Origin: Geosiphon pyriformis uo1
Taxonomy: Eukaryota > Fungi > Glomeromycota
DNA length: 64,000 nucleotides
Direction: 5' to 3'
NCBI GenBank assembly: GCA_016748015.1
Contig: JAAOMT010000694.1
Location: 124,001 to 188,000 of the forward strand
Position numbers and translations under genes: made by a program. The notes beneath the pieces are model-generated. The model had not been told where the DNA came from. It saw nothing but the letters and a program-made list of their open reading frames with translations, and did no database searches. Numbering within the stretch: position 1 is the stretch's first letter; every line of letters starts with the position of its first letter. Shown in pieces: positions 3,401-45,507 of the stretch.

Positions 3401-3860
3401 GAATGGAAAACCAGCAAGAAGCATTCAACATATTAAGAAGAAAGCTTATTCAAGCTTTAGTGTTGATGTATTCAAATTACAGCAAACCATTTATCATTAC
3501 CACTAATGCATTAAGTCAAACATTAAGAGCAGTACTATTGCAGAAAGAACTAAATAGACAAGAACACCCAGTAGCTTATGCCAGTAAAAGCTTAAGTCCA
3601 GCTGAAAAAAATTATGAAACTCCAGCACTAGAACACTTAGCTATCTATTGGACTGTTATTAAATGGAAAAAATACTTGAGTCAAAAGTTTGATGTATACA
3701 TAGATCACAAAGAATTGACTTCAATTCAGAAGCAAGAATTTGAAAATGATTGTCATACTAGATGGAAAATAGAACTTTCACTATTTAATTATACAGTACA
3801 TTACAAAAAAAGAAAAAAAATGGAAATGCCAACAGTTTGTCAAGAATAAAACAAATCTAA
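456..3860 (+). pseudogene. pol: B0 pol remnant: Cys-rich domain, dUTPase (~1605-2030), RT, RNase H
   Basis: ORF fragments 1325, 1637, 3149 and 3403 align to B1/A1 pol. Many TAA/TGA/TAG codons at Gln/Arg/Trp positions. Ends NANSLSRIKQI* at 3858-3860. Confidence 0.9.
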
Positions 3861-3922
3861 AAACATTTTAACTCAAAAATATAACAAAATTTAAACAGTT
3901 GAAAACAAAAATATAACAAAAG

Positions 3923-5290
3923 ATAAACACACAAAAATATCAACAACTCCAACACTATATAAATACTCAATTGTTCAAGGAGAAATTATCTCAAAAAGAA
4001 CAAAACAACATAAAACAACAATCAAAATATTTTATCAACCATCAAAATATATTTTACTGAAAGAACAAAAAAAATCCAAATCAACTAACCAAAGAAAGAG
4101 ACAATATTATTCAACATGCACTCAGATTCAACAGCAGGACATTTCCACAAAAAAACAATCATGAAAAGAATCAGAAAAAGATACTATTGGCCATCTATGT
4201 ATCTAGACATCATCTAATATGTTCAAAATTGTAATGCTTGTCAGAGAAGAGAAAGAACAAAACCCAGTAAGCCATTGAGACCAATCAAAGTGGGACAATC
4301 ATTTAATTGCATAGGAATTGACTTAGTTAGACCATTAACCATAATCAGCAAAGACAACAGATATATTGTAGTAACCATAAACTATCTCACAAAATGGCCA
4401 AAAGCAAAAGCCATTCAAAGAGCAGATGAAAAATCCATTGCTGAATTTATTTATCAAGATTTAATCTGCTAACATGGATATCCAAAAAAATTGTTATCTG
4501 ATCAAGGAACTTACTTTGTGAATAGAATATTAGCAGAACTAAGTCAAAGATTTGGAATTAAAAGACTATTATTATTACTATACTATCTACAAACAAATGA
4601 GTTAATTGAAAGATTCAACAGAATATTATGTAAAGCAATAGCCAAGATCAGCCAAAAAAACCAAGATAAATGAGATTTGTTTATACTATCAGTATTATTT
4701 GCTTATTGGACAATAAAACAAGACACTACACAAACAACACCATTTGAATTAATATACAGTAGAACAACAACATTACCAGTTGAGATAGAAGTCAAAATAT
4801 ATCCAACAAAACCAATAACAGAAGAGAATTTTCAAAAAATATTGTCGAGAAGAATATATGACTTAATGGAGACATTAGAAAACAAATAGCAAAAAACAGC
4901 TGATAATATCCAAAAGTCACAAGAAAAACAAAAAGAAAAACATGATAATCAATTACCAGATAAACCAGTTGAATTCAAGATCAGAAACAAAGTACTCTTA
5001 TATCATACCAAAGCAAAAAAACAATGAAGTGGAAAATTTGACCCCAAATGGGACAGACTATTTCACATAGAAAAAATTCTTGAAAATAGAGCTTATAAAT
5101 TAAAGTCAAACAACAAAATCTTAACCAAAGCAGCACATGAAAATCGACTGAAACTATATCACAATATAGTTATTAGCATTTACCAGTAATATTCTACAAC
5201 TGGGAATATAGAGAATATTAGTCTAACCAGATGAAATTTCATGAGATCTGGAACCAATCATTATTATCAACACAAACATGTCAAATTGAA
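3923..5290 (+). pseudogene. B0 integrase, separate ORF; start codon appears decayed ATG>ATA
   Basis: HHCC (HSDSTAGHF...CNAC), core (IGIDLV, LSDQG, ERFNR), C-terminal GPY/F-like region. ATA at 3923 occupies the position of the B1 ATG at 44125. End coordinate approximate. Confidence 0.85.
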
Positions 5291-11628: not shown

Positions 11629-12607
11629 TGTTACCAGACGAAATTAGAGATATTATTTAGCATGAAATTATCTTATAATTCCTATCATTAATTAGCATAT
11701 ATTATTGTTTCAAATAATTACTTATTACATTAGCAAAAATGTCCGAAATTATCATTTAATTAATAACCCGAATTGTACACAACACAAATGTAACCTAATT
11801 GTGATGATCAATCATGCAATACCCCAAACTATGTAACATTTAGAAGTTTGCCGAAATTTGTAGAAATTTGCCAAAATAATTGATAGTTCACCGAAATATC
11901 TAATAGTTTGCCGAAATAACTTGTAGTTTGCCAAAATGTATCTTTAGTTCAGCAAAATTGTAGAAAATAGCAAAGTTCAAGTTTATAGAATAGTGTTACG
12001 ACAAGTTGTATAAAAGAAGAGCTTCTCTCTTCAAGAAAATGTATCTTACTTTAGATTTATCTCTTAGAATCATTCCTATACACACAAAAAAAAATAAATA
12101 TCAAATAATTTGAAAAACCAAATTCTTTAATTATTATACTTGGAAAATTCCCAAAACCCAACTAACATTTCAAAATTGATTAGCTACCAATTTCAGTAAA
12201 CTGTTAGTGACTCCAGGCCTGGATAGAAAACGTTCCCTTGATAAAAATCTTATTTCTTTTACATTTCTTTTATTTTTCTTTTCTTTTCTTATTACAATCA
12301 TTAGGGTAGCCTACAGACGAGGTTCCTATAGAAGAGTTGACTTTCACAGCAAAGTAACTACACATTTTTAGTGAGCTTCCAGATGAGCAATTTCTGGGAA
12401 AGAGTTGATGTTTACTACAACGTAACTACATAAAGTAACTGGCAAGGAATTGGCCATTCCACTTATAAGCCCAGCAGTTCAAATTATAGGAGATAATTTG
12501 AAGATAAATTCAGTTACTGGAGGTTCAACCACATCCAGAAAACGTGAATTTACAGCAAATAAGTATCAACAACATTACAGAAAAGAGACCAAAAACCTCC
12601 GGTAACA
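11629..12607 (+). repeat. A1 5' LTR
   Basis: tgttaccag...ccggtaaca. U3 repeat array 11841-11960. TATA-like tataaaag near 12009. Confidence 0.97.
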
Positions 12608-12649: not shown

Positions 12650-15600
12650 GTGGTGACCGCCTCAGACATCACAACTTTAGAGTAGTATCAATTGATTTAC
12701 ACACACTGCAAACAACGATTTGAAATATGCGATGGAATCATAGCTTTTAAGAAAACACTTTTTCAATACATCGAAAATCAAATCAACGACTACCTCTTTG
12801 GGAACTATAACATTACAACAGTTAAAAAAGATCTTCTTGAGAACATACTATACTATTCCAACACTGAATCAGAAAACATTAGTGCTGAAGCTTGCGCTAC
12901 TTATTTTGAGGAACTCGATTATAATATCATTCGATTCTGTAAAGAAAAATATCTTGCAAATGCACAATTTGCCTTTGAACTCGAATCTGAACCTGAAACC
13001 AGTAGCAACAAAAGACAAAAAGATAACCGACCTGTTCACACAACACCTAATACTCCCAAAATATTATTCAAACATCTACAAACACCTGAACAAGAAACCA
13101 GCTCAAAACTTCCACTTACTATTACACCTTTTCCAGCTTCACTTGCACAAGCACAAACACCTAATTCACCCTTGAATTGATTTGCAAGACCAGAAGATTT
13201 TACATCACTCAGAAGTCCCACCAGATAACAAGAACCCCTTCAAACTAGTTCCAATCTCCTTGATTTTCTAGCTGAAAATCAAAGTGAACACTCTGAGACA
13301 GTAGCAAATGAAGAAAACAACTCTGAAATAACCGAAGAAGAATCAATAGACAGTGAAAACAAAGAAGACAAAATGACAACATACATTGCAAAAATCCCTG
13401 AATTCAATGGAGAAGATATTGAGATCAGCTCTCAAGAATGGCTCGACCAAGTTACTAAAGCTGGAGATGCAAATGGATGGAATGCTGCCAGAATGTTAAG
13501 AACAATTCCCTACTTTCTCAAAGGAACAGCAGGAGAATGGTTTGAAAACCTTGCCGCCCCATTCAATGATTGGAATGCTTTCAAAGCAGCCTTTCTTGAA
13601 CAGTTCACCAACAATAATACCTCTATCACTTTTCGCAATCGTTTTTGAAATATCAAACAAGAACCCTCTGAATCCGTTATGACTTATATTAGAAAATTCA
13701 ACAAACTTCTCAGACGGATTCGCCAACTCGAGACAAACAATTATTATTCCGATGCTCAAATCTTGGATCAATTTATTGCTGGTTTAAAAGATAAACTAAT
13801 TAAAAAGGTTTGCCCACATGCGCCAGAAGATTTAAACTCTACCATACAGCATGCAAAAAGATACAAAATGGCCATGGAAAAGGTCAATTATACAAAACTT
13901 GTAAATTTGGCAATTGGAGAAACCAGCTCAGCAGCTGAGGAAAAAATTGACCAACTCACAAAGAAGGTCGAAAACTATTTTACCAACCAACAACAACAAC
14001 AACCTCAAAGATATCAACCACCCCAAAAACGAAATCAAAATAACTTTGCACCACTTTCCAATAACCAGCCCCAGAATTGCCATTACTGTGGAATCTCTGG
14101 CTACTGGAAAAGAGATTGCAGAAAGCTACAATGAGACCAACAAAACAGGGGTAATCTATGTTACTCTCCACTACAGCAATCTTATTATCAACCATTACCA
14201 TCAGCCTACTATCCACCAAGACCCCAATACCAAAATAACTATTATCAGCCCACCCCACAACTAATCCAACAGCAATACCAACAACCACCCACACAATAGT
14301 ATCAAGTACCTGCTTGAAGACTGATTACACAAAATCAATTTACACCACAAAACTGATACCAAGTAAACAACAATAGAATCAGTTCGAACAACCAATTAGT
14401 TCTCCGAAATTCCACTCAACCAAGACCTAACCACTACCACACTCAATCCAGTTATTTAACAATGCCAGAAGAACAGGATTTTTACCATACTGCACTCTCA
14501 GAAGGTAAAGCTGCAGCACAACAACAACAAAACCCTTCTCATAACCACACCACTATTCCACCAGCCTGAATTGCTGAAAATGCCAATCTCTCTGATATCT
14601 TTCCTTTCGAATTTGAAGCAAATGAATCACCATTCTTGCTTAGCAATGCAGCAGCTAATGAGCAAAAAGCCATCACTGCAATGTACACAGAAGCTGAAGT
14701 AGAAGGAAAGCCAATTCACTTGATCCTAGACAGTGGATCCGCCGGAAGCATTATCACCTACCAGTTAATGCAACAGTTGAAAAGAAATGTCGACCGACCA
14801 GCTCAAACAGTAATTGTCACTGCCAATGCCATAAAAAAGACACTAGTAGGAGAAATTGACAATTTTCTATTTACTCTTGATGGAATCACCATTCCAGTCA
14901 AAGTTCTTGTAATGGACACACCCTAGTACCAAGCTCTCATCGGAAATGATTGGCTTCAAAAAGCCAATGCTAATCTGAATTGGAAAACACAAGAATTAAC
15001 AATCTCTTACCAAGGACAACACGCCCAGGTATCTGCCATTTGTGGTACATTCAACAAACATTCTGAAAAAGCCCTGGCTTTTGAATTTGAACCAGAAGAA
15101 GAAAAACCAATAATCGAAACATTCATGGCTCTTGGATCAATGTCCAACTGGGCCGATGAAACAGAACAAGAACATTTTACCCCACACTCTGAACCCGAAA
15201 CCTTTGAATGGAATATTCCTTACTTAAAACCTGAACCAAGAAAACAATGCCCCTATATTTCCTTTAAATGTAAGGACTGCCACAAGAAACTATTGTCAAT
15301 GGGAGCCTACATTTCACCTGAAGAAGAATATGAGAATCATACTTGTTATTACTGTAAGGCTTGCCACAGAGAGCAATGGGGTCATCTAATAAAAAAGAGT
15401 GGAAAATGGGACAACACTCTTTGTTTGACTTGTGGAGATATGCTACCAGAAGAATACAATTGGATTGATGTAGCAATGAGAGAAGGCGTCTGTGATCAGA
15501 CCTGCCAATATACTTTATCAATTTCAGAAAAAGTAAAAAGAGAAACACCCTTTAATGCAGCATACAACAGTGCTCTCAACAAACTTTATTACTACCCTCA

Positions 15601-18031
15601 TGATGCCAAGATGATTTTCGACTTAGCAATGGCATTAATTAATGGACCTACCAAAGAAAATGTTCGTCAAATGAAGGAAGCAGAATACATTGAATACACT
15701 ATAGAATTAGCTGGATTTGATTATGAAGATGAAGTAGAAGTCTACCACCAAATTGCAAGTTACACCTACCCGACCCAAGAAGCTCAAATTCAATGATTAG
15801 AGCAAATGAACATTAGGCTATGTGAAGAATGCATTATGCCTTGCGATGAACAATGGTGTCCTGAATGCTATGCTCTTAATATCCCCTTGCCCAGCGAAAA
15901 TGATGAGAATGAAATTGAATTTGGAGAATCTAAAGAAATAGAAGAAATTGAAACAACACCCATCTACCTTATCGAAAATCAGCCTGCCTTATAACTTAAA
16001 TACTTCAACAACAACGGGCAAGGAATAAAACCTGAAAAAGCACATGAAATTGATGCTGGATATGATCTAAGATATTCAGGCAAGGATACTCTTATTCTTA
16101 AACCCAAATTTCTCACAAAAATCAATCTCAAAATTGCACTCGAAATCCCACCAGGAACAATGGTTCAAATTGCCTTCCGGTCCTCTCTGGCAAGCAAAGG
16201 AATCAATGTCAGAGGAGGAATAATTGATGCTGGATATACTGGAAACATAACAGTGATGCTTCAAAATGAAACTGACAAACCATTCAAGATCGAACATGCT
16301 GAAAAAATTGCCCAAGCTATTTACCTACCCTTAATCAACATTTCGGGTTTGCAACTAGTCAATCAAAGAGAACAATTAGGAAAAAACAATAAAAGAACCC
16401 AAGGTTTTGGTTCAACTGGACAATTCACAGTTCTAGTTAATATAGCTCTTAACACACAGAACGAATCCCACCAGATTCTCAGACTCACACAACCGATTAC
16501 TATCTCACCCTTTGGAAAACATCCAGAAATCTACACCTGCTCAAAGCCAACAACCACACAACAAATTTTTGAGTCCAATGAACAAGTCTGCTTGGAACAT
16601 AATATTTTAATTCCAAACATTTATATTCCAGAAGGAACAAAGAAAGTCCGAGTTACTTTTTACAACCCCAATAATTACCCCATAATTTTATTAAATAATT
16701 TAGAAATTGGAGTTATTCACAGTAATATATTTTAACAAGAATTATCCCAAATAGTTCCCAATTTCTCTGAAATTATTGGACATTCAATACCAAAAACCAA
16801 CCCAAACCCCAGCTCTGAAAACTACCATGTTGTCATGGAAAAACTATCTCGAATCAACATAGGACAACTTGAACCACAACAACAGACCCAGCTCAAAGAG
16901 CTAATTACAGAAATTACTGACATTTTCGCTGAAAACAACAATGACTTAGGAAGAACTGATTTGGTTCAACACTAAATCTATACAGAAGATACCAAACTAA
17001 GGCAACAACAAGCCTACCGAGTTCCCCCAGAAAGTCACCAATTTATCTGAAAAGAAGTACAACGGATGCTTAACAATGGGCTTATTCAATCAATAATGAG
17101 CCCATGGGCCTCACCTGTGGTTCTAGTTAAAAAGAAAAATGGAAAGATACGATTTTGTGTTGATTATTGACAACTCAACAGTATCACCATTGGAGATGCC
17201 TACCCTCTTCCACGAATTGATGACATGTTGGATGCCCTTGGAAAGTCCAAATACTTTTCAACATTGGATTTAGAGAGTGGATACTGACAAGTTGCTATGG
17301 ATCCCAAAGACCGCCCCAAAACAGCATTCACCACTCAAGGAGGAAATTACGAGTTCAATGTAATGCCTTTTGGATTATGCAATGCACCAGCAACATTTCA
17401 AAGACTCATGGATGTTGTTTACAAAGGCCTCCTTTGGAAATCAGTAGTAGTTTATCTTGATGACACTGATGTTTATTCACCATCTTTCGAGCTACATTTA
17501 ATTCACCTGCGAGAAGTTTTTCAATGATTACGGAAAGCAGGATTGAAACTGAACATTGAAAAATGCTACTTTGGAAAAACAAGTTTAGCTTTTCTTGGTC
17601 ACATTGTNNNNNNNNNNNNNNNNNNNNNNNNNNNNNNNNNNNNNNNNNNNNNNNNNNNNNNNNNNNNNNNNNNNNNNNNNNNNNNNNNNNNNNNNNNNNN
17701 NNNNNNNNNNNNNNNNNNNNNNNNNNNNNNNNNNNNNNNNNNNNNNNNNNNNNNNNNNNNNNNNNNNNNNNNNNNNNNNNNNNNNNNNNNNNNNNNNNNN
17801 NNNNNNNNNNNNNNNNNNNNNNNNNNNNNNNACTTTTATCTCAGACCCAAAGAATTCGATATTATCACTAATAATATTGGACTTAAATGGCTTCAAAACA
17901 AAAACACCCAGCTGAATGCAAAACAAACCCAATGGACAGGATTTTTAGCTAATTACCAATACATCGTACACTACAAACCAGGAAAACTCCATACCAATGT
18001 TGATTGTCTCTCAAGAATGAGGCAAGATTAG
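12650..18031 (+). pseudogene. gag-pol: A1 ORF1: Gag (N-extension, capsid, CCHC), aspartic protease, Cys-rich domain, dUTPase, dUTPase-like domain, RT, RNase H; one frame with point stops
   Basis: ORF pieces 12692, 13373, 13679, 14636, 15125, 15806, 16160, 17297 and 17543 are all in one frame. Motifs: CHYCGISGYWKRDC; ILDSGS; AGYDL/RSS/GIIDAGYTG/IAQ/GFGSTG; MPFGLCNAPATF, YLDD; NVDCLSR. N gap at 17608-17831. Confidence 0.93.
15995..16420 (+). pseudogene. dut: Trimeric-type dUTPase domain within A1 pol
   Basis: All five dUTPase motifs are recognisable: DAGYDL, RSSLA, GGIIDAGYTGNI, KIAQAI, RTQGFGSTG. Confidence 0.95.
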
Positions 18032-18080
18032 AAAACAAAACCAACACCCATTTGAATTAACAGCATCAAAACAACAAACA

Positions 18081-19466
18081 ATGAACTCCAAAAACTACAA
18101 CAATCTCAAACAATATTTGGAGACATTAACAATCCCACCAGATTGGTTCCTAGACAAAAAACATCAGTTACAACAACAAGCCAAACAATATTTTCTACAC
18201 AACAACATTATCTATCATCGAAATTTCAAAAACCCAACCAAACCACTCAGATTAATACAAGAACAGGAAAAAGAGACCATTTTATACAATATGCACTCAG
18301 ATCCTTCATCAGCACACTTCGGAAAAGATAGCACCACCCAAAGAACATTAGAATACTACTTTTGGCCTCAAATGAGAAAAGACATTCACGAATATGTCGA
18401 ATCTTGTGATAGTTGTCAAAAAAGAGGAGAAACTTGCCCTACAGAACCTTTAAATCCAATCAAAGTTGGACAGCCTTTTGACAGAGTTGGTATCAATTTA
18501 GTCAGACCACTATCTATCACCACTCAAGGAAACCATTATATTGCAGTAGCTATAGACTATCTTACTAAATGGCCTGAAGCCAGAGCCATTCAATGAGCAG
18601 ATGCAAAATCAGTAGCAAATTTCATCTACGAAAACATCATTTGTAGACATGGATGTCCAATTGAACTTTTATCCAATCAAGGAACACACTTTGTGAACAA
18701 CCTGATACAAGAAATTTGTGAACGATTCAATGTCAAAAGACCTCTGTTTTTGCCCTACCATCCACAAACAAATGAACTTGTGAAACGTTTTAACAGAACA
18801 TTGTGTGAGTCATTAGCCAAAGTCTCAACCAATTTTGAGCAAGAATGGGATCTCTTTATTCCATCAGTGTTACTAGCATACAGGACATTAAAACAAGATA
18901 CCATGAAACACACACCATTTGATTTAACTTATGGAAGAACAACAATGTTACCAATTAGTTTCACAGTAGAAACATACCCAGCACAACCAATCGATGAAAA
19001 CAATTTCCAAGAAACATTTCAGCGAAGAGCCTACACTTTGCTTAGCACATTGGAAAAAAAACGATGAATAGCAGCCACCCATATTAAACACTCCCAAGCT
19101 CAACAAAAAGAACAGCATGATGACAAATTGCCTTCAGTCACCAATAAATTCAAAATTGGAAACAAAGTTCTCTTACACAGAATTAAAGCTGAAAAACAAT
19201 GGAATGGAAAATTTGAAAATAAATGGGATGGACTATTCTTTATCCATGAAGTCCTAGGCAATGGATCATACAAGCTAAGACTTGATGACAAAATCCTAGC
19301 AAAAGTTGCACATAAAGATCATTTGAAACACTATCATTCCAGAAACAATCCTGAACTATTAATTCTACAAATTGGTACACATTTCTCTTTGGTCAGTCCT
19401 GAAGATATTCCCTGAAACTTAGAACCAATAGTTGTCATTGAACAACCTTCCAACCTGAACACTTAA
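18081..19466 (+). pseudogene. A1 ORF2: integrase (HHCC, DDE, GPY/F-like), own ATG, 461 codons with point stops
   Basis: HSDPSSAHFG...CDSC; VGINLV (D>N), LSNQG (D>N), VKRFNR (E>K); WDGLFFIHEVLGNGSYKL. No chromodomain seen. Confidence 0.92.
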
Positions 19467-19582: not shown

Positions 19583-20302
19583 ATGACTATTCATCAAAAC
19601 ATTCAACAATTATCCCAAAAACTAATGTTAGCTTTAAAAACAATACCCGAATTATCTATTACTGTTACTGGAAACCACATTAATTATACCCAAACAGAAG
19701 TAGTTACAAATTTAGCCCCAAACTCACGAAAATATCACCCATATAAGAAGAACACAAGAAGTTATTCTGGAATTCACCTGCCAAAACTTTTAAAGCTTGC
19801 TTTAAGAGAAAACCTAATGCTCACTCCAATTAGTATTCCACCAAATGCTACAATTCAACAAAAACTTCAACTGTGTCTTAATGAGGAAAACACTGAATAT
19901 CCTCCAATCTATAGATATTTCCACATTGGAAAAACACTCTACAAACGGAAACTGGAACTTACAACAGCAAACCTCACAAAAGAAGCTATTCAAAAACAAT
20001 TCCACAATGAATTCAAGACAACAGCTGAACCAACAAACAGTCACTACAAGCTCAGAACTGCTCTTAGACTTTATGACCTATTCCACACCTGTGAAAACGT
20101 ACTGCAAAACCCAATTTTTCAACCTTTAAAGATTCAATATATTGAAAAGCTCACAGAACTGAAATTTCAACAATTTTCAGACCAAATTTCTTCAATAATT
20201 TTGGATTATTATCTGGAAATAATAGACAGTACTTAGACTTCGACGGAGCTCAGTCTTGAGGAGGAGGTTATGTTACCAGACGAAATTAGAGATATTATTT
20301 AG
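19583..20302 (+). CDS. A1 ORF3, unknown non-Env protein; 217 aa open, ancestrally about 239 aa running into the 3' LTR
   Basis: Open 19583-20236. TAG at 20234-20236 is TGG in A2, which extends the frame through the PPT to TAG 20300-20302. Homologues in B0, B1, C and D. Confidence 0.8.
20258..20267 (+). promoter_or_regulatory. Polypurine tract of A1
   Basis: gaggaggagg, 3 nt before the 3' LTR. Confidence 0.9.
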
Positions 20303-21249
20303 CATAAAATTATCTTATAATTCCTATCATTAATTAGCATATATTATCGTTTCAAATAATCACTTATTATATTAGCAAAAATGTCGGAAATTATCATTTA
20401 ATTAATAACCCGAATTGTACACAACACAAATGTAACCTAATTGTGATGATTAATCATGCAATACCCCAAACTATGTAACATTCAGAAGTTTGCCGAAATT
20501 TGTAGAAATTTGCCAAAATAATTGATAGTTTACCGAAATATCTAATAGTTTGCCGAAATAACTTGTAGTTTGCCGAAATGTATCTTTAGTTCAGCGAAAT
20601 TGTAGAAAATAGCAAAGTTCAAGTTCATAGAATAGTGTTACGACAAGTTGTATAAAAGAAGAGCTTCTTTCTTCGAGAAAATGTATTTTATTTTAGATTT
20701 ATCTCTTAGAACCATTCCTATACACACAAAAAGAAATAAATATCAAATAATTTGAAAAACCAAATTCTTTAATTATTATACTTGGAAAATCCCCAAAACC
20801 CAACTAACATTTCGAAATTGATTAGCTACCAATTTCAGTAAACTGTTAGTGACTCCAGGCCTGGATAGAAAACATTCCCTTAATAAAAATCTTATTTCTT
20901 TTACATTTCTTTTATTTTTCTTTTCTTTTCTTATTACAATCATTAGGGTAGCCTACAGACAAGATTCCTGTAGAAGAGTTGACTTTCACAGCAAAGTAAC
21001 TACACATTTTTAGTGAGCTTCCAGACGAGCAATTCCTGGAAAAGAGTTGACGTTTACTACAACGTAACTACATAAAATAACTGGCAAGGAATTGGCCATT
21101 CCACTTATAAGCCCAGCAGTTCAAATTATAGAAGATAATTTGAAGATAAATTCAGTTACTGGAGGTTCAACCACATCCAGAAAACGTGAATTTACAGCAA
21201 ATAAGTATCAACAACATTACAGAAAAGAGACCAAAAACCTCCAGTAACA
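20271..21249 (+). repeat. A1 3' LTR
   Basis: Direct repeat of 11629-12607. Confidence 0.97.
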
Positions 21250-22599: not shown

Positions 22600-23835
22600 T
22601 TTTGAGTCATATACTATAAACAGAATAATTATTGAAGATTGTTCTGAATTGATCTTAAAGAATATAAGAATCATTGTTTAAAACTTTGTTGATTAAAAAG
22701 GGTTTTTTTCACTGGCTAGAGAATTTATTACCATAGACATTGTTTCTGTCTAAACAATATTTCAATACTAAGTTACCAACACTTAAGAAAAGTGTTTTAT
22801 AAGTTTTTTTTTTCTTAAGCTTTTCTTGAAACTATTTTATTTTTTCAAAGACAATTATTTGTGTTTCTATCAATGAGTCAAGAATGGTATCAAGTTTTCT
22901 TTGTAAAATGTCTTTATAATTCCCTATTGTAATTTCTTCAAAGGGTATTGTTTCAATGTCAGTTTCTATTGGTAGTGTTGCCATGTATCTATAGAACAGA
23001 TAAAAAAGTTTATAACTTATTATGTTATGGTTTACAGTTCTATAAACAAACAAAGCTGAAGGCAGTACTTTGTTCCATAAGTTTGTTTCTTCACTGGTTT
23101 TGGCTAAGGTTTCACATAGTGTTCTATTAAAATGTTTTACTAAGCTATTTGTTTAAAGATAATAAAGGGAGAAAAAATTATAACATATTTCCATTTTTTT
23201 ACAAAGCTTTTTAACCAATGTACTAAGAAAAGCTCTTTTTCTATTAGATAAAAGTTCTTTGAAGCAGTCATAATGGCAGATAATATTTTTATAAATAAAG
23301 TTAGCTATTGAGACTGCTGTTTGATATGAGATGGCTCTTGCTTTTACCCATTTTGTAAGATAGTCGGTAGCTGTGATAATGTATTTGTTGCCATTAGGAG
23401 TTATTGTTAAAGATCCAACAACATCTATACCAATTTTGTCAAATGGTTAACCAACAGAGATTGGATGGATATCTTCTTTGTGATTAGGTTTTTTTTTTGG
23501 CAGGTGTTACAAGTTTTAATGTACTTAGCAATGTCTTTTTCCAAGATATGCCAATAATAATAAGCTAAAGTTTTCTGAATTGTTTTTGTTTTTTTAAAAT
23601 GTTCAGCTAATGGGTTAGTGTACATATTATATATTACAATTTCTTTTTTTTCAAATCTGATGACTCTTTGAGAACAGTCAAAATTTTTTTTATTTTTTTT
23701 ATATAACTGGTTTTGGTAAATCAAATAGAAATTTGATTGTTTGCACAAATGTTCTCTTTGCTGTCAAGTGTATTTTGGTGGGTATTGTCTTTTACCCAAA
23801 AATTCTATTAAGACAGAATAGTTGTCCAAGTCCAT
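22600..23835 (-). pseudogene. C integrase with ATG at 23835
   Basis: MDLDNYSVLIEFL...MYTNPLAEHF...CNTCQ; GIDVVGSL; ATDYLTKWVKA. 3' end approximate. Confidence 0.85.
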
Positions 23836-23895
23836 TATTATGTTTATTTATAAGAGAGTTACTAATAATTAAGTTGGTTTGGTTAAGAGGTTGTA

Positions 23896-26800
23896 CTATC
23901 TCTGAATGATAAGTTTAGAGAAAGCATCAGTATTTTGATAATTTGCTCTTTTGTGGTGTTGAATATTATAGTCAAATTCATCCAAATGGAATATCCAGTG
24001 AGTTATTCATTTATGTTCTAACTTTTTTTTATTGTGCAGTTAAACCAAGGCTTAATAATTTGTTACTATTAGAAATTTCACACCAAGAAGATATTGGTTC
24101 CAGTAACTAGTAGTCCAAATTACTGCTAAGCATTCTTGTTCAATAACTGAATAGTTCTTTTCTGCTGGTATAAGGATTCTACTGGCATATACTATAGCAT
24201 GTTTCTTGTCATTTTCATCTTTTTAGAAGAGAATAGCACTAAGTCTATAGCCAGATATATCAGTGTGCAGGATAAAAAGTTGGTTTAAGTCAGGTTGTTT
24301 AATGATTGGTTCAATAACAAGTTTTTCCTTTAGAGTTTCAAAAGCTTTTTGTTGATAAGTGCCCCAATGATAATTGACATTTTTTCTAAGCAGCTGATTA
24401 AGAAGAAAGACGATTTTGAAAAAATCTTTAATAAATTTGCAATAATAAGAGACCAAACCAAGGAAAGAGCATAGTTCAGGAACATTCATGAGTTGTCTAA
24501 TGTTTTGGACTTTTTCAACTTGGGTCAGAAAAAATTCCATCTTTTGTAATAAAATGACCAAAAAACTGGGTGGATTGTTATCTAAAAAGAGATTTAATTG
24601 GGTTTATCTTGAGACCAGCATTTCTAAAGAGATCAAAAACCTTTTGCAAGTGTTCCAAATATTCATTCCAGGTTTTTGAGTATACCATTATATCATTTAA
24701 ATAGACCAGAACAAAGTTTTTTTTTACTGATTCAAACACTTTGTTTATTAGGTATTAAAAGATGGAAGGAGCATTAATGAGACCAAAAAGCATGACTGTG
24801 AATTTGTAGATGCCATACTTAGTAATGAAAACAGTTTTCTTTCTACTTTTTGAATCCATTTTTACTTGTCAGAATTCAGCAGTTAAGTTAATGGTTAAGA
24901 AGAAAACAGCATCATTAAATTTGTCTAATATTGCATTAATTTTGGGAAATAGATACATGTCTCTTATAGTGATGGTATTTAATTGGCAATAGTCAACACA
25001 AAAGCATAAAGTTCCATTTTTTTTGAATACCACTACAACTAAAAAAGCCCATTCACTCCTGGTTTTTTGTATGAATCTAAGATTTTTTATTCAGTTTATC
25101 TCTTTTTTGATGAACTCATTATTGTGCTGATTAGATTGATAAGACTTCAAATAGATGGGGTGAATTTCTCTGATAGTAATGGTGTGTTGTATTACATAGG
25201 TTTATCTAAAGGTATTATCTTCTTTTGAAATAACTGGGCTATTTTTAGCCAACAGATTTTTAATGTTTACTTTTCTTTCTTTAAAAAAGAGTTCTCTTTG
25301 TTCTATTACAAGTAATTGAATTTTAGATAGTTTATTTTTAAAAGATTTTTGTACTTCTCTTAGTTCTTCTCTGGGTACCAAATTAATTGGCTCCTAATCT
25401 TTGTAATAGATTAGGCAAAACTTGTATTTATCACTAAAAAAATATAAAAATTTATTACATCAGCACCTGGTACAAGAACCATACCACCAATAACTGTATT
25501 TGGCTTTCTTGCTAAATTTTCTGTCAAAGGTTCTTCTGAGTATGTCATAGTAGGGCCAGCAGATTAGCTTGTTATTTACAATGATTTTTTTTCTGTCAGC
25601 TTTGACATTATCTAATGGCTTGTTATTACTAATAAAAATGATATAGATGAGTTCAGCAGTTTCTTTTTGTTATTCTTGATCTTTTTTTTCATTGTTTTCA
25701 TTATTATTTGATTTATCTAATTGTTCTTTTTTTTGGATGCTGAAGGGGTTGTTTAATAACAAAACTTAACTACAATGGACTTTTTACCACATCTGATAGT
25801 TAACTCACAAAGTTCATAGTTAAGTAATACTTTGGCTTTCTTGAGTCATTTATTGTTAACAATTATGGTATACTCTTTTGTTTCAGATACTTTCATGTCA
25901 GTCTTAATGCTGATGTTATTAATATGAACAAGAACAGCTTTGGTTATACCAAGCCCTTTTTTTTTGTTACCATACACATTGGTTATTAGTCTGGTTGAAT
26001 GTTTATCAATTTTTCTACCAATGGCTTCCAGAAAGTGTTTGGCAATTACACTAACACATAATTTACTGTCTAGAATCAAGTCAATAAAATAACCAGCCAT
26101 TTGGGCTTTGCAAATAAAAAAAGTAGTATTGCTGTTGTTAGCAAGTCCAGCTTGGTGAAAGTGCTTATTGGTTTTTGGTGTTTTTTCTTTAAAATCAATG
26201 ATTTGCAAAGATCTTTTCTGAATTGTGGATGAGTTATTAACTGGCCAAAAGTAATGTGAGCTGGGGTTTCTATGAAATTTTTAATAACAGAATAGAGACC
26301 AGATTTTTGTACAATTTTTGGAGATTCCAACTTTGAAAAGTTTTTAAAACTTTAGCCTTTGGTGGTTCATTGTTATTAGCAGTTGATGTGGATGCTTTGT
26401 TTGGGTCTAGAACAAAATTAATCTTGGCTTTTTTCTTTTTTCTTGTTAATTCAGAGGTATTAATTGCTAGTTTATCCATGTTATGGTCATTATTAGTTAA
26501 GTTAAAAACAAAAAAAGGGTTTTTTTCTGATTGGCTTGTACTCTCACTTTTTAAAGATGTGCCTACCAGTTTAAAGACTGATAAACAGTGGCTTCAACTA
26601 AAGGATCTTTTTCAAAAAAATTAATGTTGCCATAATTGGGTCTTTAATTGGAGACATTGTTGTTAATAATTTTGTTGTTTTAATTGTTATTGTTTCTAAA
26701 AACTGGAAGAGGCAAAGGAGGATTGTTGCAATTTCTAAAGAAATGTTCAGTTAATCTACAATAATAACATACAGATAGACCACAATTTTGTTGTTTTTGA

Positions 26801-31170: not shown

Positions 31171-32555
31171 TTAAGTGTTCAAGTTGGGAGGTTGTTCAAT
31201 GACAACTATTGGTTTTAAATTTCGGAAAATATTTTCAAGATTGATTAAAGGGGAATGTGTACTAATTTGTGGAATTAATGGTTCAGGATTGTGTCTGGAA
31301 TTATAGTGTTTCAAACAATCTCCATGTGCAACTTTTGCTAGGATTTTGTCATTAAGTCTTAGCTTGTATGATTTGTTGCCTAGGACTTTATGGATAAAGA
31401 ATGATCTATCCCATTTATTTTCAAATTTTCCACTCCATTGTTTTTCAGCTTTAGTTCTGTGTAAAAGAACTTTGTTTCCGATTTTAAATTCATTGGTAAC
31501 TGGAGGCAATTTGTTGTTATGCTGTTCTTTTTGTTGAGCTTGAAAGTGTTTAATATGGGTGGCTGCTATTCATCATTTTTTTTTCAATATGCTAAGCAGA
31601 GTATAGGCTCTTTGTTGTAGTGTTTCCTAAAAGTTGTCTTTATTAATTGGTTGTACTGGATATGTTTCTATTGTGAAACTAATTGGTAATGTTACTGTCT
31701 GTCCATAAGTTAAATCAAATGGTGTGTGTTTTGTGGTATCTTGTTTTAGTGTTCTATATGCTAGTAACACTGATGGAATAAAAAGATTTTATTTTTGCTC
31801 AAAATCAGTTGAGACTTTGGCTAATGATTCACACAATGTTCTGTTGAAACATTCTACAAGTCTATTTGTTTGTGGATGGTAGGGTGAAGATAATAGTCTC
31901 TTGACATTAAATTGTCCACAAATTTCTTGGATTAAATTGTTCACAAAATGTGTTCCTTGATCAAATAAAAGTTCTATTAAGCATCCATGTCTACAAATGA
32001 TGTCTTCGTAGATAAAGTTTGCTACTGATTTTGCATCTGCTCATTGAATGGCTCTGGCTTCAGGCCATTTGGTGAGATAGTCTACAGCTACTGCAATATA
32101 ACGGTTTTCTTGGTTTGTAATAGGTAGTGGTCCGACTAAATCGATACCAACTCGGTCAAAAGGCTGTCCAATTTTAATTGGGTTTAAAGATTCTGTAGAG
32201 TGAGTTCCTTCTCTTTTTTGACAACTATCACAAGACTTAATGTATTCATGAATGTCTTTTCTCATTTGAGGCTAAAAGTAATATTCTAGTGTTCTCTGAA
32301 TGGTGCTGTCTTTTCTTAGATGTGTTAATGAAGGATCTGAGTGCATGTTATATAAAATGGTTTTTTTTTATGTTCTTGTATTAATCTGAGTGGATTGTCT
32401 GGGTTTCTGAAGTTTCGATAATAAATCATGTTGTTGTGTAAGAAATATTGTTTGGCTTGTTGTTGTAACCAATGTTTTTTATCTGAGGACTAATCTGTTA
32501 AGATTGTTAATGTCTCCAAATATTGTTTAAGATTGTTGTAGTTTTCAGGATTCAT
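31171..32555 (-). pseudogene. A2 ORF2 integrase, own ATG
   Basis: MNPENYNNLKQYL...CDSC...VGIDLVGPL...DYLTKWPEA. Confidence 0.92.
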
Positions 32556-32601
32556 TGTTTGTTGTTTTGTTGTTAATTCAAATGGGTGTTGGTTTTGTAT
32601 T

Positions 32602-35600
32602 CTAATCTTGCTTCATTCTTAAGAGACAATCAATGTTGGTATGGAGTTTTCTTGGTTTGTGGTGTACAATATATTGGTAGTTGGCTAAAAATCCTGTCCA
32701 TCGGGTTTGTTTTGCATTCAGCTGAGTGTTTTTGTTCTGAAGTCATTTGAGTCCAATATTATCAGTAATAATATCGAATTCTTTGGGTCTGAGGTAAAGA
32801 TTGAAGTAATGTAGAGCCCAGATTACTGCTGCAGTTTCTAATTCTGTTGCAGGATAGTTTTTTTTGGCTGGTTTCAATGTTTTGCTAGCATAAGCAATTA
32901 TTCACTCATTTCTATTGTTATTTAACTGTGATAGGATTGCACCAAAAGTGGTATAAGAGGCATCTGTTGCTAACTGGAATCAGTTGCTGAAATCTTGGTA
33001 GGTAAGAATTAGAACTGTTATTAGTTTTTCTTTGAGGATTTCAAATGCATTTTGGTGTTCAGCAGCCCATTTGTATTTGACGTTTTTTGTGGTAAGCTGG
33101 TTGAGAGATTTTGCGATTTCTGAGAATCCTTTGATAAACTTCCAATAGTAGGAGACTAACCCTATGAATCCTCTTAGTTCTGTAGTGTTTTGAGAAGTTT
33201 TGAAGTTTTTGACAGTGCTGATTTTTTCAGAGTCTGGTTTGATTCCATTTTTACTAACAATATGACCAAGGAAGGCCAAGCTTGTTTTTCCAAAGTAGCA
33301 TTTTTCAATGTTGAGTTTCAGTCCTGTTTTTTGTAATCATTGAAAAACTTCTCGCAGGTGTTTTAAGTGTAATTTAAATGATGAAGAATAAACATTAGTA
33401 TTGTCAAGATAAACAACTACTGACTTTCAAAGAAGGCCTTTGTAAACAATGTCTATGAGTCTTTGGAATGTTGCTGGTGCATTGCATAATCCAAAAGACA
33501 TTACATTGAACTCGTAATTTCCTTCTTGAGTGGTAAATGCTGTTTTGAGGCAATCTTTGGGATCTATGGCAACTTGCTAGTATCTACTCTCTAAATCTAA
33601 TGTTGAAAAGTATTTGGACTCTCCAAGAGCATCTAGCATGTCATCAATTTGGAGAAGAGAGTAGGCATCTTCAATGATGATACTGTTGAGTTGTCGATAA
33701 TCAACACAAAATCGTATCTTTCCATTTTTTTTTTTAACTAAGACCACAGGTGAAGCCCATGGACTCATTGATGTTTGAATAAGCCTATTGTTGAGCATCT
33801 GTTGTACTTTTTTGCAGATAAATTGGTGACTTTTTGGAGCAACTTGGTAGGCTTGCTGTCACCTTGGTTTGGCATCTCCTGTATAGATTTAGTGTTGAAC
33901 CAAATCAGTTTTTCCTAAGTCATTGTTGTTTTTGGCAAAGATATCAGCAAATTTTGCAATTAGCTCTTTGAGCTGGTTCTGTTGTTGTGGTTCAAGTTGT
34001 CCCATGTTGATTTAAGATAGTTTTTCCATGACAACATGGTAGTTTTCAGAGCTGGGGTTTGGGTTGATTTTTGGTAGTGAGTGTCCAATAATTTCAGAGA
34101 AATTGGGGACTGTTTGAGGTAATTCTTGTTGAAAGATATTACTATAAATAACTTCAATTTTTAAGTTATTTAATAAAACTATGGGGTAATTATTGGGGTT
34201 GTAAAAAGTAACTCAGACTTTTTTTGTTCCTTCTGAGATGTAAATATTTGAGATTGTAATATTATGTTTCAAGCAGATTCGTTCATTGGACTCAAAAATT
34301 TGTTGGGTGGTTGTTGGCTTTGGGCAGGTATAGATTTCGGGATGTTCTCCAAAAAGTGAAATAGTGATTGGTTGGGGAAGGCGTAAAATTTGGTGAGACT
34401 CATTCTGTTCATTGAGAGCTATGTTTACTAGAACTGTAAATCATCCAGTTGAACTAAAACCTTGTGTTCTTTTTTTGCTTTTTCCCAATTGTTCTCTTTG
34501 ATTGACTAACTGTAAGCCTGAAATGTTGATTAAGAGTAAATAGATAGCTTGGGCAATTTTTTCGGAATGTTCAATTTTGAAAAGTTTATTGGTTTCATTT
34601 TGAAGTATTACTGTTATGTCACCAGTATATCCAGCATTGATTATTCTTCTTCTGACATTGATTCCTTTGCTTGCCAGAGAGGACCGGGAGGCAATTTGAA
34701 CCATTGCTCCTGGTAGGATTTCGAGGGCAATTTTGAGGTTGATTTTTGTGAGAGATTTGGGTTTGAGAACAAGAGTATCCTTGTCTGGATATCTTAGGTC
34801 ATATCCAGCATCAATTTCATGTGCTTTTTCAGGTTTTATTCCTTGTCCGTTGTTGTTAAAGTATTTGAGTTGTAAGGCAGACTGATTTTCAATGAGATAG
34901 ATGAGTGTTGCTTCAATTTCTTCTGTTGCTTCAGATTCTCCAAATTCAATTTCGTTTTCATCGTTTTCACTGGACAGGAGAATGCTAAGAGCATAGCATT
35001 CAGGACACTATTGTTCATCACAAGGCATTATGCATTCTTCACACAATTTAATGTTCATTTGCTCTAGCTGTTGGGCTTGAGCTTTTTTGGTTGGGTAAGT
35101 GTAATTGGCAATTTGGTAATATACTTCTACTTCATCTTCATAATTGTATCCAGCAATTTCAAAGGTGTATGCAATGTATTCTAATTCTTTCATTTGATGA
35201 ACATTTTCTTGAGTGGCTTCATTGATTAAAGCCATTGCTAGATTGAAAATTATTTCAGCATCGTGAGAGTAATGGTACAGTTTGTTGAGGGCACTATTGT
35301 AAGCAGCATTAAAAAGGGTTCCTCTTGTTACTTTTTCTGAGATTAAAAGGACATATTGGCATGTTTGATCACAGACTCCTCCTTTGAATGCAACATCAAT
35401 CCAGTTGCATTCATCAGATAATTGTTCTCCACAAGTCAAACAGGGTGTTCTATCCCATTTTCCACTTCTTTTAATTAGGTGTCCCCATCATTTTCAGTGG
35501 CAGGATTTGCAATAGTAACAAATATGGTTTCCATATTTTTCTTCAGGTAAAATACAAGCTCCCATTGATGAGAGTTTTTTGTGGCAATCTTTGTATTTGA

Positions 35601-42200: not shown

Positions 42201-44063
42201 ACAAGAGGGATACAGAAATTTGGATCAACGGGTAGAATAAATGTACCAGTCAATATGATGGAAGAAAAATTATTGGCCAAGAAGAAATTATTTCAACTGG
42301 TCAAACAATTTCTATTCTACTATAGCCAATATATGTTAGCAATAGAAAGGAAAAAGAAGAAGCAAGAACAGATTTTTGAAGCAGAAGCAACCCTTTGTGA
42401 ATTAGGAGAAATTGGACTTATGAATCTACACATACTAGCCAAGAGCCATAACCATATCAAAATTCCTATCTACAACAACACCAGAAATATTGTAGAGATA
42501 CTGGAAGGAACCACTCTCAGATATTTAACCACAGAAATTGAAGATCAAGCACCAAACAGCATTCCAGATTTTCCACAGCTTTGTGGATATGTAGACATTA
42601 CATCACAAATCATCTACGGACGAAATGAATGTTATCTGTTACAGCCAGAACAATTGGAACAGATGAACATGGGAAATCTAGACTCACTTCAACGAATGTA
42701 ACTAAAGATGTTACTCAATAATTTCAATGACATTTTTGCCAGTGAAAACGAATTTGGCAGAACTGATATTATCCAGCATCAGATCAAGACTGGAGGTGCA
42801 ATGCCAATCAAACAGTGAGCATATAGGGTACCACCAGCCAGCCATGAAATCATTCATCAAGAGATCAACCAAATGCTTGACAATAAATTAATTCAGCCAT
42901 CAATGAGCCCATGGTTGTCACTAGTAGTACTCGTCCATAAAAAAAATAGAAAAATCCGATTTTGTGTAGACTACAGGAAACTCAATGGTGTAACTCATGA
43001 AGACAGCTATTCAACTCTATAAATACAAGAACTATTCGACACTTTTGGTGAAAACAAATGGTTCTCAATATAAGACTTAGATAGTGGTTACTGGCAAATA
43101 GCCATGGATCCAGCCAACAAAGAAAAAATAGCATTCACCACAAGAAAGAGAAACTTTGAGTTTGAAGTTATGTCATTTGGCTTAATCAATGCTCCAGCTA
43201 CATTCCAATGGCTAATGAAAATTGTGTATATTGGCTTATTGTGGAAATCAGTAGTTGTATACTTGGATGACACCAATATGTTTTCAAAAACATTTGATGA
43301 TTATCTACATCATTTCTAATAAGTGTTCGAAAGACTACGATGAGCAAGATTAAAATTAAATACAACAAAGTGTTTTTTTGGCAAAACAGAACTAAAATTT
43401 TTAGGACACATAGTTAGCAAAGATGGCATAAAAACAGATCTGGAGAAAATAAAGATAGTAAAGAACTTTCCAATACCAACCAACATAACTGAGCTGAAAT
43501 TATTCTTGGGATTTGTAAGCTATTATAGACATTTCATAAAGAACTTTTCAAAAATAGCACAATCACTCAATGATCTTCAAACCAAAAAGGCAAAGTATGA
43601 ATGGACTAAAACCCAGTAAGAAGCATTTGACATCTTAAGAAGAAAACTTATTCAAGCTCCAGTATTGATCTATTTAGATCATAGTAAACTATTCATTATC
43701 ACCACCAATGCATCAGATCAAGCATTGGGAGCAGTACTATCTCAGAGAAAACCAGATGAAAGAAAATATCCAGTCGCATACACCAGCTGAGATTTAATAC
43801 CAGCCAAAAAGAACTATGGAACATCAGAATTAGAACATTTAGCAATCTATTGGGCAGTTATGAAATGGAAAAAATACTTGAGCCAAAAGTTTGAGGTGTA
43901 CACAAATCACAAAAGATTAACATCACTCCAAAAATAAAAATTTGGAGACAGAAGACAGTCAAGATGGAAAATGGCTCTTTTGATATATACTTATACTATA
44001 CATTATAAAAAGGGAAAAGACAACAAAAATGCTGACAGTTTGTCATAAATGAGACAAATCTAA
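39217..44063 (+). pseudogene. gag-pol: B1 ORF1 3' part: Gag CCHC, PR, Cys-rich domain, dUTPase (~41808-42233), RT, RNase H
   Basis: CHNCGKQDHIRANC is in frame with protease ILDNGS (39217 and 40033 share a frame). Also YYCKPCHRE, GIIDAGYIG, FGLINAPATF, YLDD. Ends NADSLS*MRQI* at 44061-44063. Confidence 0.92.
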
Positions 44064-44124
44064 GAACATTTCAACCCAAAAATATAACAAAACCAAAACA
44101 ATATTCACAAAAATATAACAAAAG

Positions 44125-45507
44125 ATGAACACACAAAAATATCAACAACTTCAACATTATATAAATACTCAACAGTTCAAGAAGAAATTATCTCAACCAG
44201 AACAAAAGAGGATCAAACAACAATCCAAATATTTTATTACTTACCAAAATATACTTTATTGAAAAAATAAAAAAGATTCAGATCAACCAACCAGAGTAAT
44301 TACAGAACCAGAAAAGAAGACAATACTGTTCAACATGCACTCAGATCCAACTGCAGGACATTTTTATAAAGAAGCAACCATGAAAAAAACCAGAAAAAAA
44401 TACTATTGGCCATCAATGTATCCAAACATCATCCAATATGTGCAAAATTGTGATGCTTGTCAAAGAAAAAGAGGAACAAGACCCAGCAAACCATTGAGAC
44501 CAATCAAAGTGGGACAACTATTTGACCATATTGGAATCAATTTAGTCAAACCATTGACAATTACCAGCAGAAACAACAGATATATTGCAGTAGCCATGGA
44601 CTATCTTATTAAATGGCCAGAAGCCAAAGCAATTCAAAGAGCGGATGCAAAATTTGTTGCTGAATTTGTCCATCAAAATCTGATTTATCAACATAAATGT
44701 CCAAAAGAACTATTATCAGACCAAAGAACCCATTTTGTGAATAGAACATTAACAGAACTAAGCCAAAGATTCGGAATTAAGAGACCACTATCATTATTAT
44801 ACCATCCACAAACCAATGGATTAGTTGAAAAATTTAATAGAACATTGTGTGAAGCAATAGCAAAACTCAGCCAAGAAAACCAGGATGAATGGGATTTGTC
44901 TATATCATCAGTATTATTTGCTTATCGAACAATGAAACAAGACACCACACAAGCAACACTATTTGAATTGATATACAGTAGAACAGCAACATTACCAGTT
45001 GAGATAGAGATTAACACATATTCAACTAAACCAATAACAAAAAAGAATTTCCAAGAAATATTGTTAAAAAAAACATATGACTTAATGAAAACATTGGAAA
45101 ACAAACGAAAAAAAGCAGCTGATAACATACAAAAGTCACAAGAAAAACAGAAAGAAAGACATAATAATCAACTACCAGACAAACCAGTTGAATTTAAGAT
45201 TAGAAACAAAGTACTCTTACATTGTACCAAAGTGGAAAAACAATGAAGTGGAAAATTTGATCCCAAATGGGATGAACTATTTCACATAGAAGAAATTCTA
45301 GAGAATGAAGCTTACAAATTAAGACTGGATAACAAAATCTTAACCAAAGCAGCACATGGAGATCGACTGAAACCATATTACAATATCACACCACCATTTA
45401 CCAGTAATATTTCACAATTAGGAGTACAGAAGATACTAGTTCAACCAGAAGAAATTCCACGAGATCTGAAACCAATCATCATCATTGACAACAACATGTT
45501 AAATTAA
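44125..45507 (+). pseudogene. B1 ORF2 integrase, own ATG
   Basis: MNTQKYQQLQHYI...HSDPTAGHF...CDAC...LLSDQ...NGLVEKFNR; 460 codons with point stops. Confidence 0.92.

Follow-up and report, generated by a model that had tools for sequence, protein, structure and literature searches.

The window analyzed here is a stretch of 64,000 nucleotides (nt) from contig JAAOMT010000694.1 of the fungus Geosiphon pyriformis uo1. It carries five copies, named A1, A2, B0, B1, and C, of LTR (long terminal repeat) retrotransposons belonging to the Ty3/Gypsy type in which integrase has an open reading frame (ORF) of its own, placed behind the stop codon that ends the frame for reverse transcriptase (RT) and RNase H. 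Copy A1 is a complete LTR element of 9.6 kb on the forward strand, with the order Gag, protease, dUTPase, RT, RNase H, stop, spacer, integrase, and ORF3. Its 5' LTR (positions 11629..12607; 979 nt, TG...CA) is followed by a TGG primer-binding-site-like stretch and matches the 3' LTR (20271..21249) at 948 of 979 positions. A polypurine tract lies just upstream of the 3' LTR, and the flanks, ATAT and ATGT, resemble a 4-nt target duplication carrying one change. The ORF1 region (12686..18031) is decayed and contains an N gap at 17608-17831. Gag, protease, dUTPase, RT, and RNase H were identified by Pfam, as were, after the gap that follows RNase H, an H2C2 zinc finger and an integrase core. ORF1 ends with a TAG (18029..18031) three codons past a DxLSR motif. 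A spacer of 49 nt follows (18032..18080), which is A/C-rich, 4% G, free of AUG, and without a stable fold (-0.4 kcal/mol, z -0.76). The integrase ORF (18081..19466) opens with its own ATG and encodes the H2C2 finger, the core, and an SH3-like end, interrupted by three decay TGA codons and with a mutated catalytic triad. ORF3, encoding a small helical protein, occupies 19583..20236. The paired TG...CA LTRs, primer-binding-site-like stretch, and polypurine tract are Ty3/Gypsy traits, and the order Gag, protease, RT, RNase H, integrase is that of Metaviridae. The H2C2 finger and D-D-E integrase of that family are present as well, the triad having decayed in A1 and B1. All relatives found are of Gypsy type, in trees that contained no Copia, Bel/Pao, or retrovirus outgroup.

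The stop, spacer, and start recur in the other copies. On the reverse strand, A2 (32553..32604) has a TAG at 32604-02, a 46-nt spacer, and an ATG at 32555-53, and C (23833..23898) has a TAG at 23898-96, a 60-nt in-frame spacer with two further stops, and an ATG at 23835. On the forward strand, B1 (44061..44127) has a TAA at 44061-63, a 61-nt spacer with an in-frame TAA three codons ahead of the start, and an ATG at 44125; its integrase ORF (44125..45507) is decayed and is followed by an ORF3-like frame. B0 (3858..3925) has a TAA at 3858-60, a 62-nt spacer, and a start decayed to ATA at 3923. A sequence-only reading of the window had proposed from these junctions that integrase is a separate cistron, and direct reading recovers all five at the same coordinates. 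It also bears out the description of the spacers as G-poor and A/C-rich (2-5% G), with A at -3 in 5/5 integrase starts, and the in-frame TAA just before the start in B0 and B1, where only two codons are open upstream.

The window copies themselves are dead. A1 holds 18 decay stops in addition to its mutated triad; the TAG of its ORF3 was entered among them because other family members read on. A2 shares seven of these 18 as stops, and B0 shares 3 of the 14 in B1; an extra decay TAA lies at 44046 in B1, within the LSR motif. The earlier argument that decay stops vary between copies while the junction stop is fixed is thus weak in the window, and since the copies are dead and share decay stops, the window alone proves little. 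For C, decay had been kept as a caveat. Its spacer is indeed in frame, but it holds three stops in all, TAG and two TAA, which makes decay less likely than had been allowed. When contigs of run X1 (12,321) were aligned to A1, none of the 40 difference rows listed, out of 327, fell at the stop or the ATG. On A2, the G of the ATG is altered in 4.4% of depth and the sole indel listed is 3 nt; in that alignment the ORF1 stop and a control decay stop lie too close to the stretch ends to be read.

It is the intact relatives, not the window, that show the junction pattern to exceed chance. For DNA context, 80 metagenome loci (L-numbered) were used, the best of 575 that were confirmed. Forty-five of the 80 span the integrase N-terminus, with an ATG at profile position 1 in 22, a fused frame in 18, and a cut or decayed start in 5. 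Loci of the ATG type are at least 39% identical to the query and fused loci at most 36%; in 14 of the 18 fused loci the linker between RNase H and integrase is 21-26 residues. Where the contig of an ATG locus also includes RNase H, the integrase ATG is preceded by a stop in 12/12 cases; the frames flanking the junction are long and open, and the ORF1 pieces measure 231-1479 amino acids (aa). Proteins give the same picture. A search of proteins of 179-573 aa with the B1 integrase returned 515 matches, and among the 120 listed (P-numbered), where a Met at position 1, read from the protein alone, defines a split element, 92 start at this homologous Met and 17 at an internal Met (position 18). The D-D-E triad is kept in all 120, and RNase H is present in none. 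The same layout in intact relatives indicates that integrase is a separate cistron by design. We regard it as nearly certain that this fungal Ty3/Gypsy lineage encodes integrase behind the RNase H stop with an AUG of its own. The window copies are rich in stops, many of them shared, as would be the case if the junction stop were decay or an assembly error in dead copies; however, relatives with open frames and a full catalytic triad show the same junction in every one of the 12 loci, and this explanation is extremely improbable.

Because a search limited to 179-573 aa cannot see fusions, longer proteins were searched separately. Of 41 matches, 3 exceed 40% identity, and these are all NCBI gene models, with the join at a different point in each. 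One joined model, P0122, lacks 23 integrase residues as well as the C-terminal end of RNase H; it is identical at 344 of 353 positions to the stand-alone P0065 of the same species. Such joined RT-integrase models are probably artefacts of predicted introns. An unfiltered profile search over 150 representatives at 50% identity found no fused form among the 17 best single-domain scores. The named carriers of stand-alone integrase are Glomeromycota and one member of the Mucorales: Rhizophagus, Entrophospora (as fragments within the cluster), two Paraglomus species, and Lichtheimia ornata, each identified by the protein start only. Intact integrase ORFs occur in Rhizophagus irregularis (P0013 and P0032), a species in which passages of 10.1101/2021.03.30.436303 describe expression of Gypsy elements. 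P0275, a stand-alone integrase of the fungal lineage, was deposited under an Acidobacteria metagenome bin and is probably mis-binned fungal DNA.

The separate frame could also be bridged, with integrase still fused to RT-RNase H through a +1 frameshift or readthrough, at least in family A. The sequence-only reading had raised frameshifting as a caveat, and the open frame on which it rested is confirmed: the +1 frame of A1 and A2 is open for 20 and 19 codons, respectively, past the ORF1 stop, and the 46- and 49-nt spacers preserve that frame. In addition, L007 has an open, in-frame spacer, and readthrough seems to occur elsewhere in the lineage, at a UGA-CUA in three relatives. However, 45% of shuffled family A spacers are also open, and over 17 loci spacer length ranges from -8 to 727 nt, with remainders modulo 3 of 0, 1, and 2 in 4, 6, and 7 loci. 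The integrase frame is closed within the spacer in 15/17, the exceptions being L007 and L018, where the ORFs overlap. P0174 and P0175, near-identical members of one cluster, differ in frame upstream of the Met, and a fusion would have no need of a conserved Met in good context. Since each of the three frames is represented among the spacers and an in-frame stop stands just before the ATG in family B, the sister of A, the caveat is largely removed. A local frameshift in family A retains a small chance, and a general frameshift or readthrough fusion is very unlikely.

The readthrough signal in the relatives lies upstream of RT, where an in-frame TGA is followed by CTA in three otherwise open loci (L003:870-872, L018:1585-1587, and L017:3358-3360). 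Sections of PMC3542737 describe UGA-CUA as a known readthrough context, and the signal is likely a programmed readthrough site setting the ratio of Gag to RT. In L016, overlapping gag and pol frames take the place of TGA-CTA.

How ribosomes may reach the integrase AUG was examined through the distribution of AUG around the junction. In the 16 spacers under 200 nt (short spacers), AUG is seen once, compared with 10.8 expected (dinucleotide shuffle, P 0.0002). No depletion is found on either side: out-of-frame AUGs number 10, 28, and 52 in the last 60, 150, and 300 nt of ORF1 (10.1, 27.1, and 50.9 expected), and 79 occur downstream of the last ORF (71.9 expected). The depletion begins at the ORF1 stop and ends at the integrase AUG, as expected if ribosomes scan after termination. 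A purine stands at -3 in 22/25 integrase starts (background 0.54, P 0.0003). In L018, RNase H and integrase meet in a start/stop overlap, ATGGATAA, the only overlap at this junction in the 17 loci, and in L012 an ATGA overlap joins integrase to ORF3. Spacers between integrase and ORF3 contain 0 AUG where 4.7 are expected (n=10); this test is weaker, since the first Met was taken as the ORF3 start. Reinitiation, internal entry, and a subgenomic RNA had been named together in the sequence-only reading, and the AUG pattern favors the first of them. We judge termination-reinitiation to be the probable main route to integrase. Ribosomes would translate ORF1 from the full-length RNA, terminate at the RNase H stop, scan the short AUG-free spacer, and restart at the integrase AUG; the new integrase Met would have replaced a linker cleaved by protease. 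The same coupling of termination and restart may serve ORF3. The free integrase would then join the particle or the cDNA by non-covalent contact with Gag, RT, or RNA, or would encounter the cDNA once uncoating has taken place. The separate packaging route proposed in the sequence-only reading would be a logical consequence of this layout.

A separate integrase mRNA, transcribed from a promoter inside the element or spliced near the ORF1 stop so that the spacer would be its 5' leader, would likewise predict an AUG-free leader and a good start context, and it fits the AUG-rich long spacers of L003, L017, and L033 better than scanning does. We nevertheless consider it unlikely. A universal splice acceptor was sought and not found. 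AG is missing from the spacers of L007, L011, and A2 and shows no excess overall (64 seen, 61.6 expected), which argues against a general splice acceptor. A TATA-like word occurs in the spacers of C and L023, but the surrounding stretch is AT-rich and the AUG is no more than about 30 nt away. Moreover, the ORF1 stop is where AUG depletion sets in, a boundary that need not matter to a transcript start, and the overlap in L018 points to coupling. More doubtful still is internal ribosome entry, in which the spacer, as an A-rich unstructured stretch or a conserved RNA fold, would recruit ribosomes without translation of ORF1. The unfolded spacers of the window would suit the first form, and the second could draw on a covarying two-helix motif that ends 2-15 nt before the AUG in nine loci. 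However, no sequence is common to spacers across the lineage, the motif is confined to one subclade and absent from the window, and RNA structure downstream of the stop is also able to act in coupling, as passages on SART1 in PMC5972666 indicate.

The two-helix motif, with the loop CANNGUGA and an upstream UGAAAG, lies at L005:4461-4503, L006:20-62, L009:583-625, L012:183-225, L013:488-530, L019:173-215, L020:6-48, L027:490-532, and L028:17-59, the last found independently. Seven of its ten pairs show two-sided changes, a value reached in 0/500 shuffles. No match to Rfam was obtained at E up to 1 over 18 loci (L016 and L018 left out). Among viral contigs, three weak loci matched and were not used, and the spacer motif was unmatched there. 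The 727-nt spacer of L017 contains pieces resembling the motif.

Several observations weigh against termination-reinitiation. The 200-nt cut-off was set after the data were seen, and the three long spacers (278, 365, and 727 nt) are not depleted in AUG (22 seen, about 23 expected). Five of the 16 short spacers rest on an ORF1 assumed without RNase H on the contig; without them, 1 AUG is seen and 6.5 are expected (base shuffle, row sum). The same distribution of AUG would arise from an RNA whose 5' end is close to the ORF1 stop. The search for an upstream element common to the loci was negative, with UGGGA in 1/20 upstream windows of 90 nt, and known reinitiation after long ORFs mostly requires such an element or a transactivator, according to passages in PMC5972666. 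The open +1 frame of family A, with its single listed spacer indel of 3 nt, the open in-frame spacer of L007, and the real fused members among the split ones (P0124, P0359, and others) count on the same side.

ORF3 encodes a helical protein that is conserved in 10 relatives. In other copies of family A it is 22 codons longer than in A1 and runs through the polypurine tract into the 3' LTR (19583-20302 in window coordinates). A search with family A ORF3 gave 206 protein clusters; the 120 listed (P0475-P0594) are all hypothetical proteins of Geosiphon pyriformis, up to 92% identical. The family A ORF3 is open in many copies, whereas Pol and integrase of A1 are broken. Window ORF3 and the ORF3 of relatives match weakly (probability 47%, E 0.0002, 83 columns). 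The structure model is confident (predicted local distance difference test, pLDDT, 91.7). No Pfam family was found for ORF3 at E below 0.01, and the model had no Foldseek match at E 0.001, the best Z being 5.0 over 69 residues, with mixed leads from the Atlas; this lack of fold matches does not establish a new fold. In L003, L014, L018, and L022, ORF3 is absent, and a polypurine tract and LTR-like DNA follow integrase. The lineage is therefore bi- or tricistronic: the tricistronic design proposed earlier holds for many members, in which ORF3 is real, but is not general.

The history of the split was approached with quick, unrooted, AT-biased trees, in which family B is the sister of family A. 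Split elements group together strongly: free trees contain 5-6 changes between the split and fused states, compared with about 27-31 in shuffles (integrase trees). Trees forced to a single origin scored higher than the free trees and were not rejected (p-AU 0.72 and 0.79); the free searches were therefore incomplete, and a single origin is not thereby proven. P0383 and P0325 were removed before one of the two single-origin tests as likely fragments with an internal Met. Three truly fused RNase H-integrase proteins, P0124, P0162, and P0359, fall among the split elements and are candidates for re-fusions or for the ancestral state. A plant group, which we take to be Athila-like, falls within or beside the split clade. 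With fused elements (P0124 and P0359) and this plant group inside or beside the clade, re-fusion or several origins are possible. Taken together, we tentatively propose an old polycistronic Ty3/Gypsy lineage, reaching from Glomeromycota into Mucorales, that would use UGA readthrough between Gag and Pol and serial reinitiation for integrase and ORF3, helped in one subclade by structured RNA, and would need no Gag-Pol tether for integrase; as a whole, this picture has a somewhat less than even chance of being right. If it is true, some of the fused elements nested in the clade are re-fusions.

Other features of these elements were recorded alongside. Upstream of the capsid-like domain, the ORF1 frame of A1 continues for about 230 codons, among which no in-frame AUG is obvious (12686-13370). 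Between protease and dUTPase, families A and B contain a Cys-rich stretch of about 350 residues with repeated CxxC (14927-15994), for which no convincing Pfam family was found. ORF1 extends past RNase H by 314 residues in L005 (2-4438) and by 586 in L017 (3361-6702) before its stop. In the 365-nt spacer of L003 (2490-2854) there is a lysine-rich frame, about 69 codons long when counted from the first Met, which may be an additional cistron separating RNase H from integrase. At L080:7980-10648, integrase lies upstream of RT-RNase H, presumably the Gmr1-like order.

The split-integrase organization is real and new within Ty3/Gypsy; its mechanism is one that we infer. A full-text literature search, covering sources other than subscription journals, Repbase reports, and supplementary transposable-element libraries, found no description of this layout. 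LTR retrotransposons and retroviruses load integrase into the particle as part of Gag-Pol. The success of a natural lineage whose integrase is free shows this tether to be dispensable, and it raises two questions: by what means integrase finds its particle or the cDNA, and what lets fungal ribosomes start again behind an ORF of 1,000 codons when there is no overlap. For human immunodeficiency virus (HIV), sections of PMC9144474 describe integrase supplied in trans and delivered as a Vpr fusion. There are also consequences for annotation: these integrases are deposited as stand-alone genes or are linked to RT by predicted introns that do not agree with one another, more than a hundred "hypothetical proteins" of Geosiphon are ORF3 of this element, and pipelines demanding a single pol frame would score intact elements as broken. 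LTR elements make up 41% of the Geosiphon genome, a figure given in part of PMC11952901.

Several known systems share parts of this arrangement. The Ginger and GingerRoot DNA transposons carry a Gypsy-like integrase as a stand-alone ORF, whereas the integrase described here is part of an LTR element, in which it follows RT-RNase H directly; a Ginger-type transposon, with integrase alone between terminal inverted repeats, is ruled out by the flanking RT-RNase H and LTRs. Victoriviruses, hypoviruses, and caliciviruses also place an enzyme ORF downstream of a long ORF, and sections of PMC3542737 describe the overlaps AUGA and AUGnn-stop as used for reinitiation by caliciviruses and fungal victoriviruses, which the overlaps in L012 and L018 resemble. 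These are RNA viruses, however, and most members here have a 30-190 nt spacer, no overlap, and no shared upstream motif that we found. The pattern of the calicivirus termination upstream ribosome-binding site (TURBS) is likewise not seen, with UGGGA in 1/20 upstream windows and an overlap in 1/17 loci. LINE-1 and SART1 are retrotransposons whose second ORF is reached after ORF1; passages in PMC5972666 report reinitiation over a 63-nt spacer as a proposal for LINE-1 ORF2, and the involvement of downstream RNA structure in SART1 ORF2 translation. Unlike the elements studied here, they are non-LTR elements whose ORF2 holds RT, with no DDE integrase and no particle to load. Caulimoviridae are reverse-transcribing relatives with polycistronic RNA and are not known to have LTRs or integrase. 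Their closely spaced cistrons are read by reinitiation that depends on a transactivator (TAV), across up to 700 nt, according to passages in PMC5972666. Nothing ties ORF3 to TAV: its model matched nothing clearly, and it is missing from four split loci. The closest comparison is with Metaviridae. Parts of PMC3248453 describe Ty3/Gypsy pol as one polyprotein cut by protease. The elements described here share the LTRs, primer site, polypurine tract, protease-RT-RNase H-integrase order, and H2C2 and D-D-E integrase of that family, but they add a dUTPase after protease in families A and B and, in many members, an ORF3 matching no known family. Integrase, which canonical Metaviridae translate within Pol and release by protease, here stands outside the polyprotein with its own AUG, marking these elements as a variant lineage.

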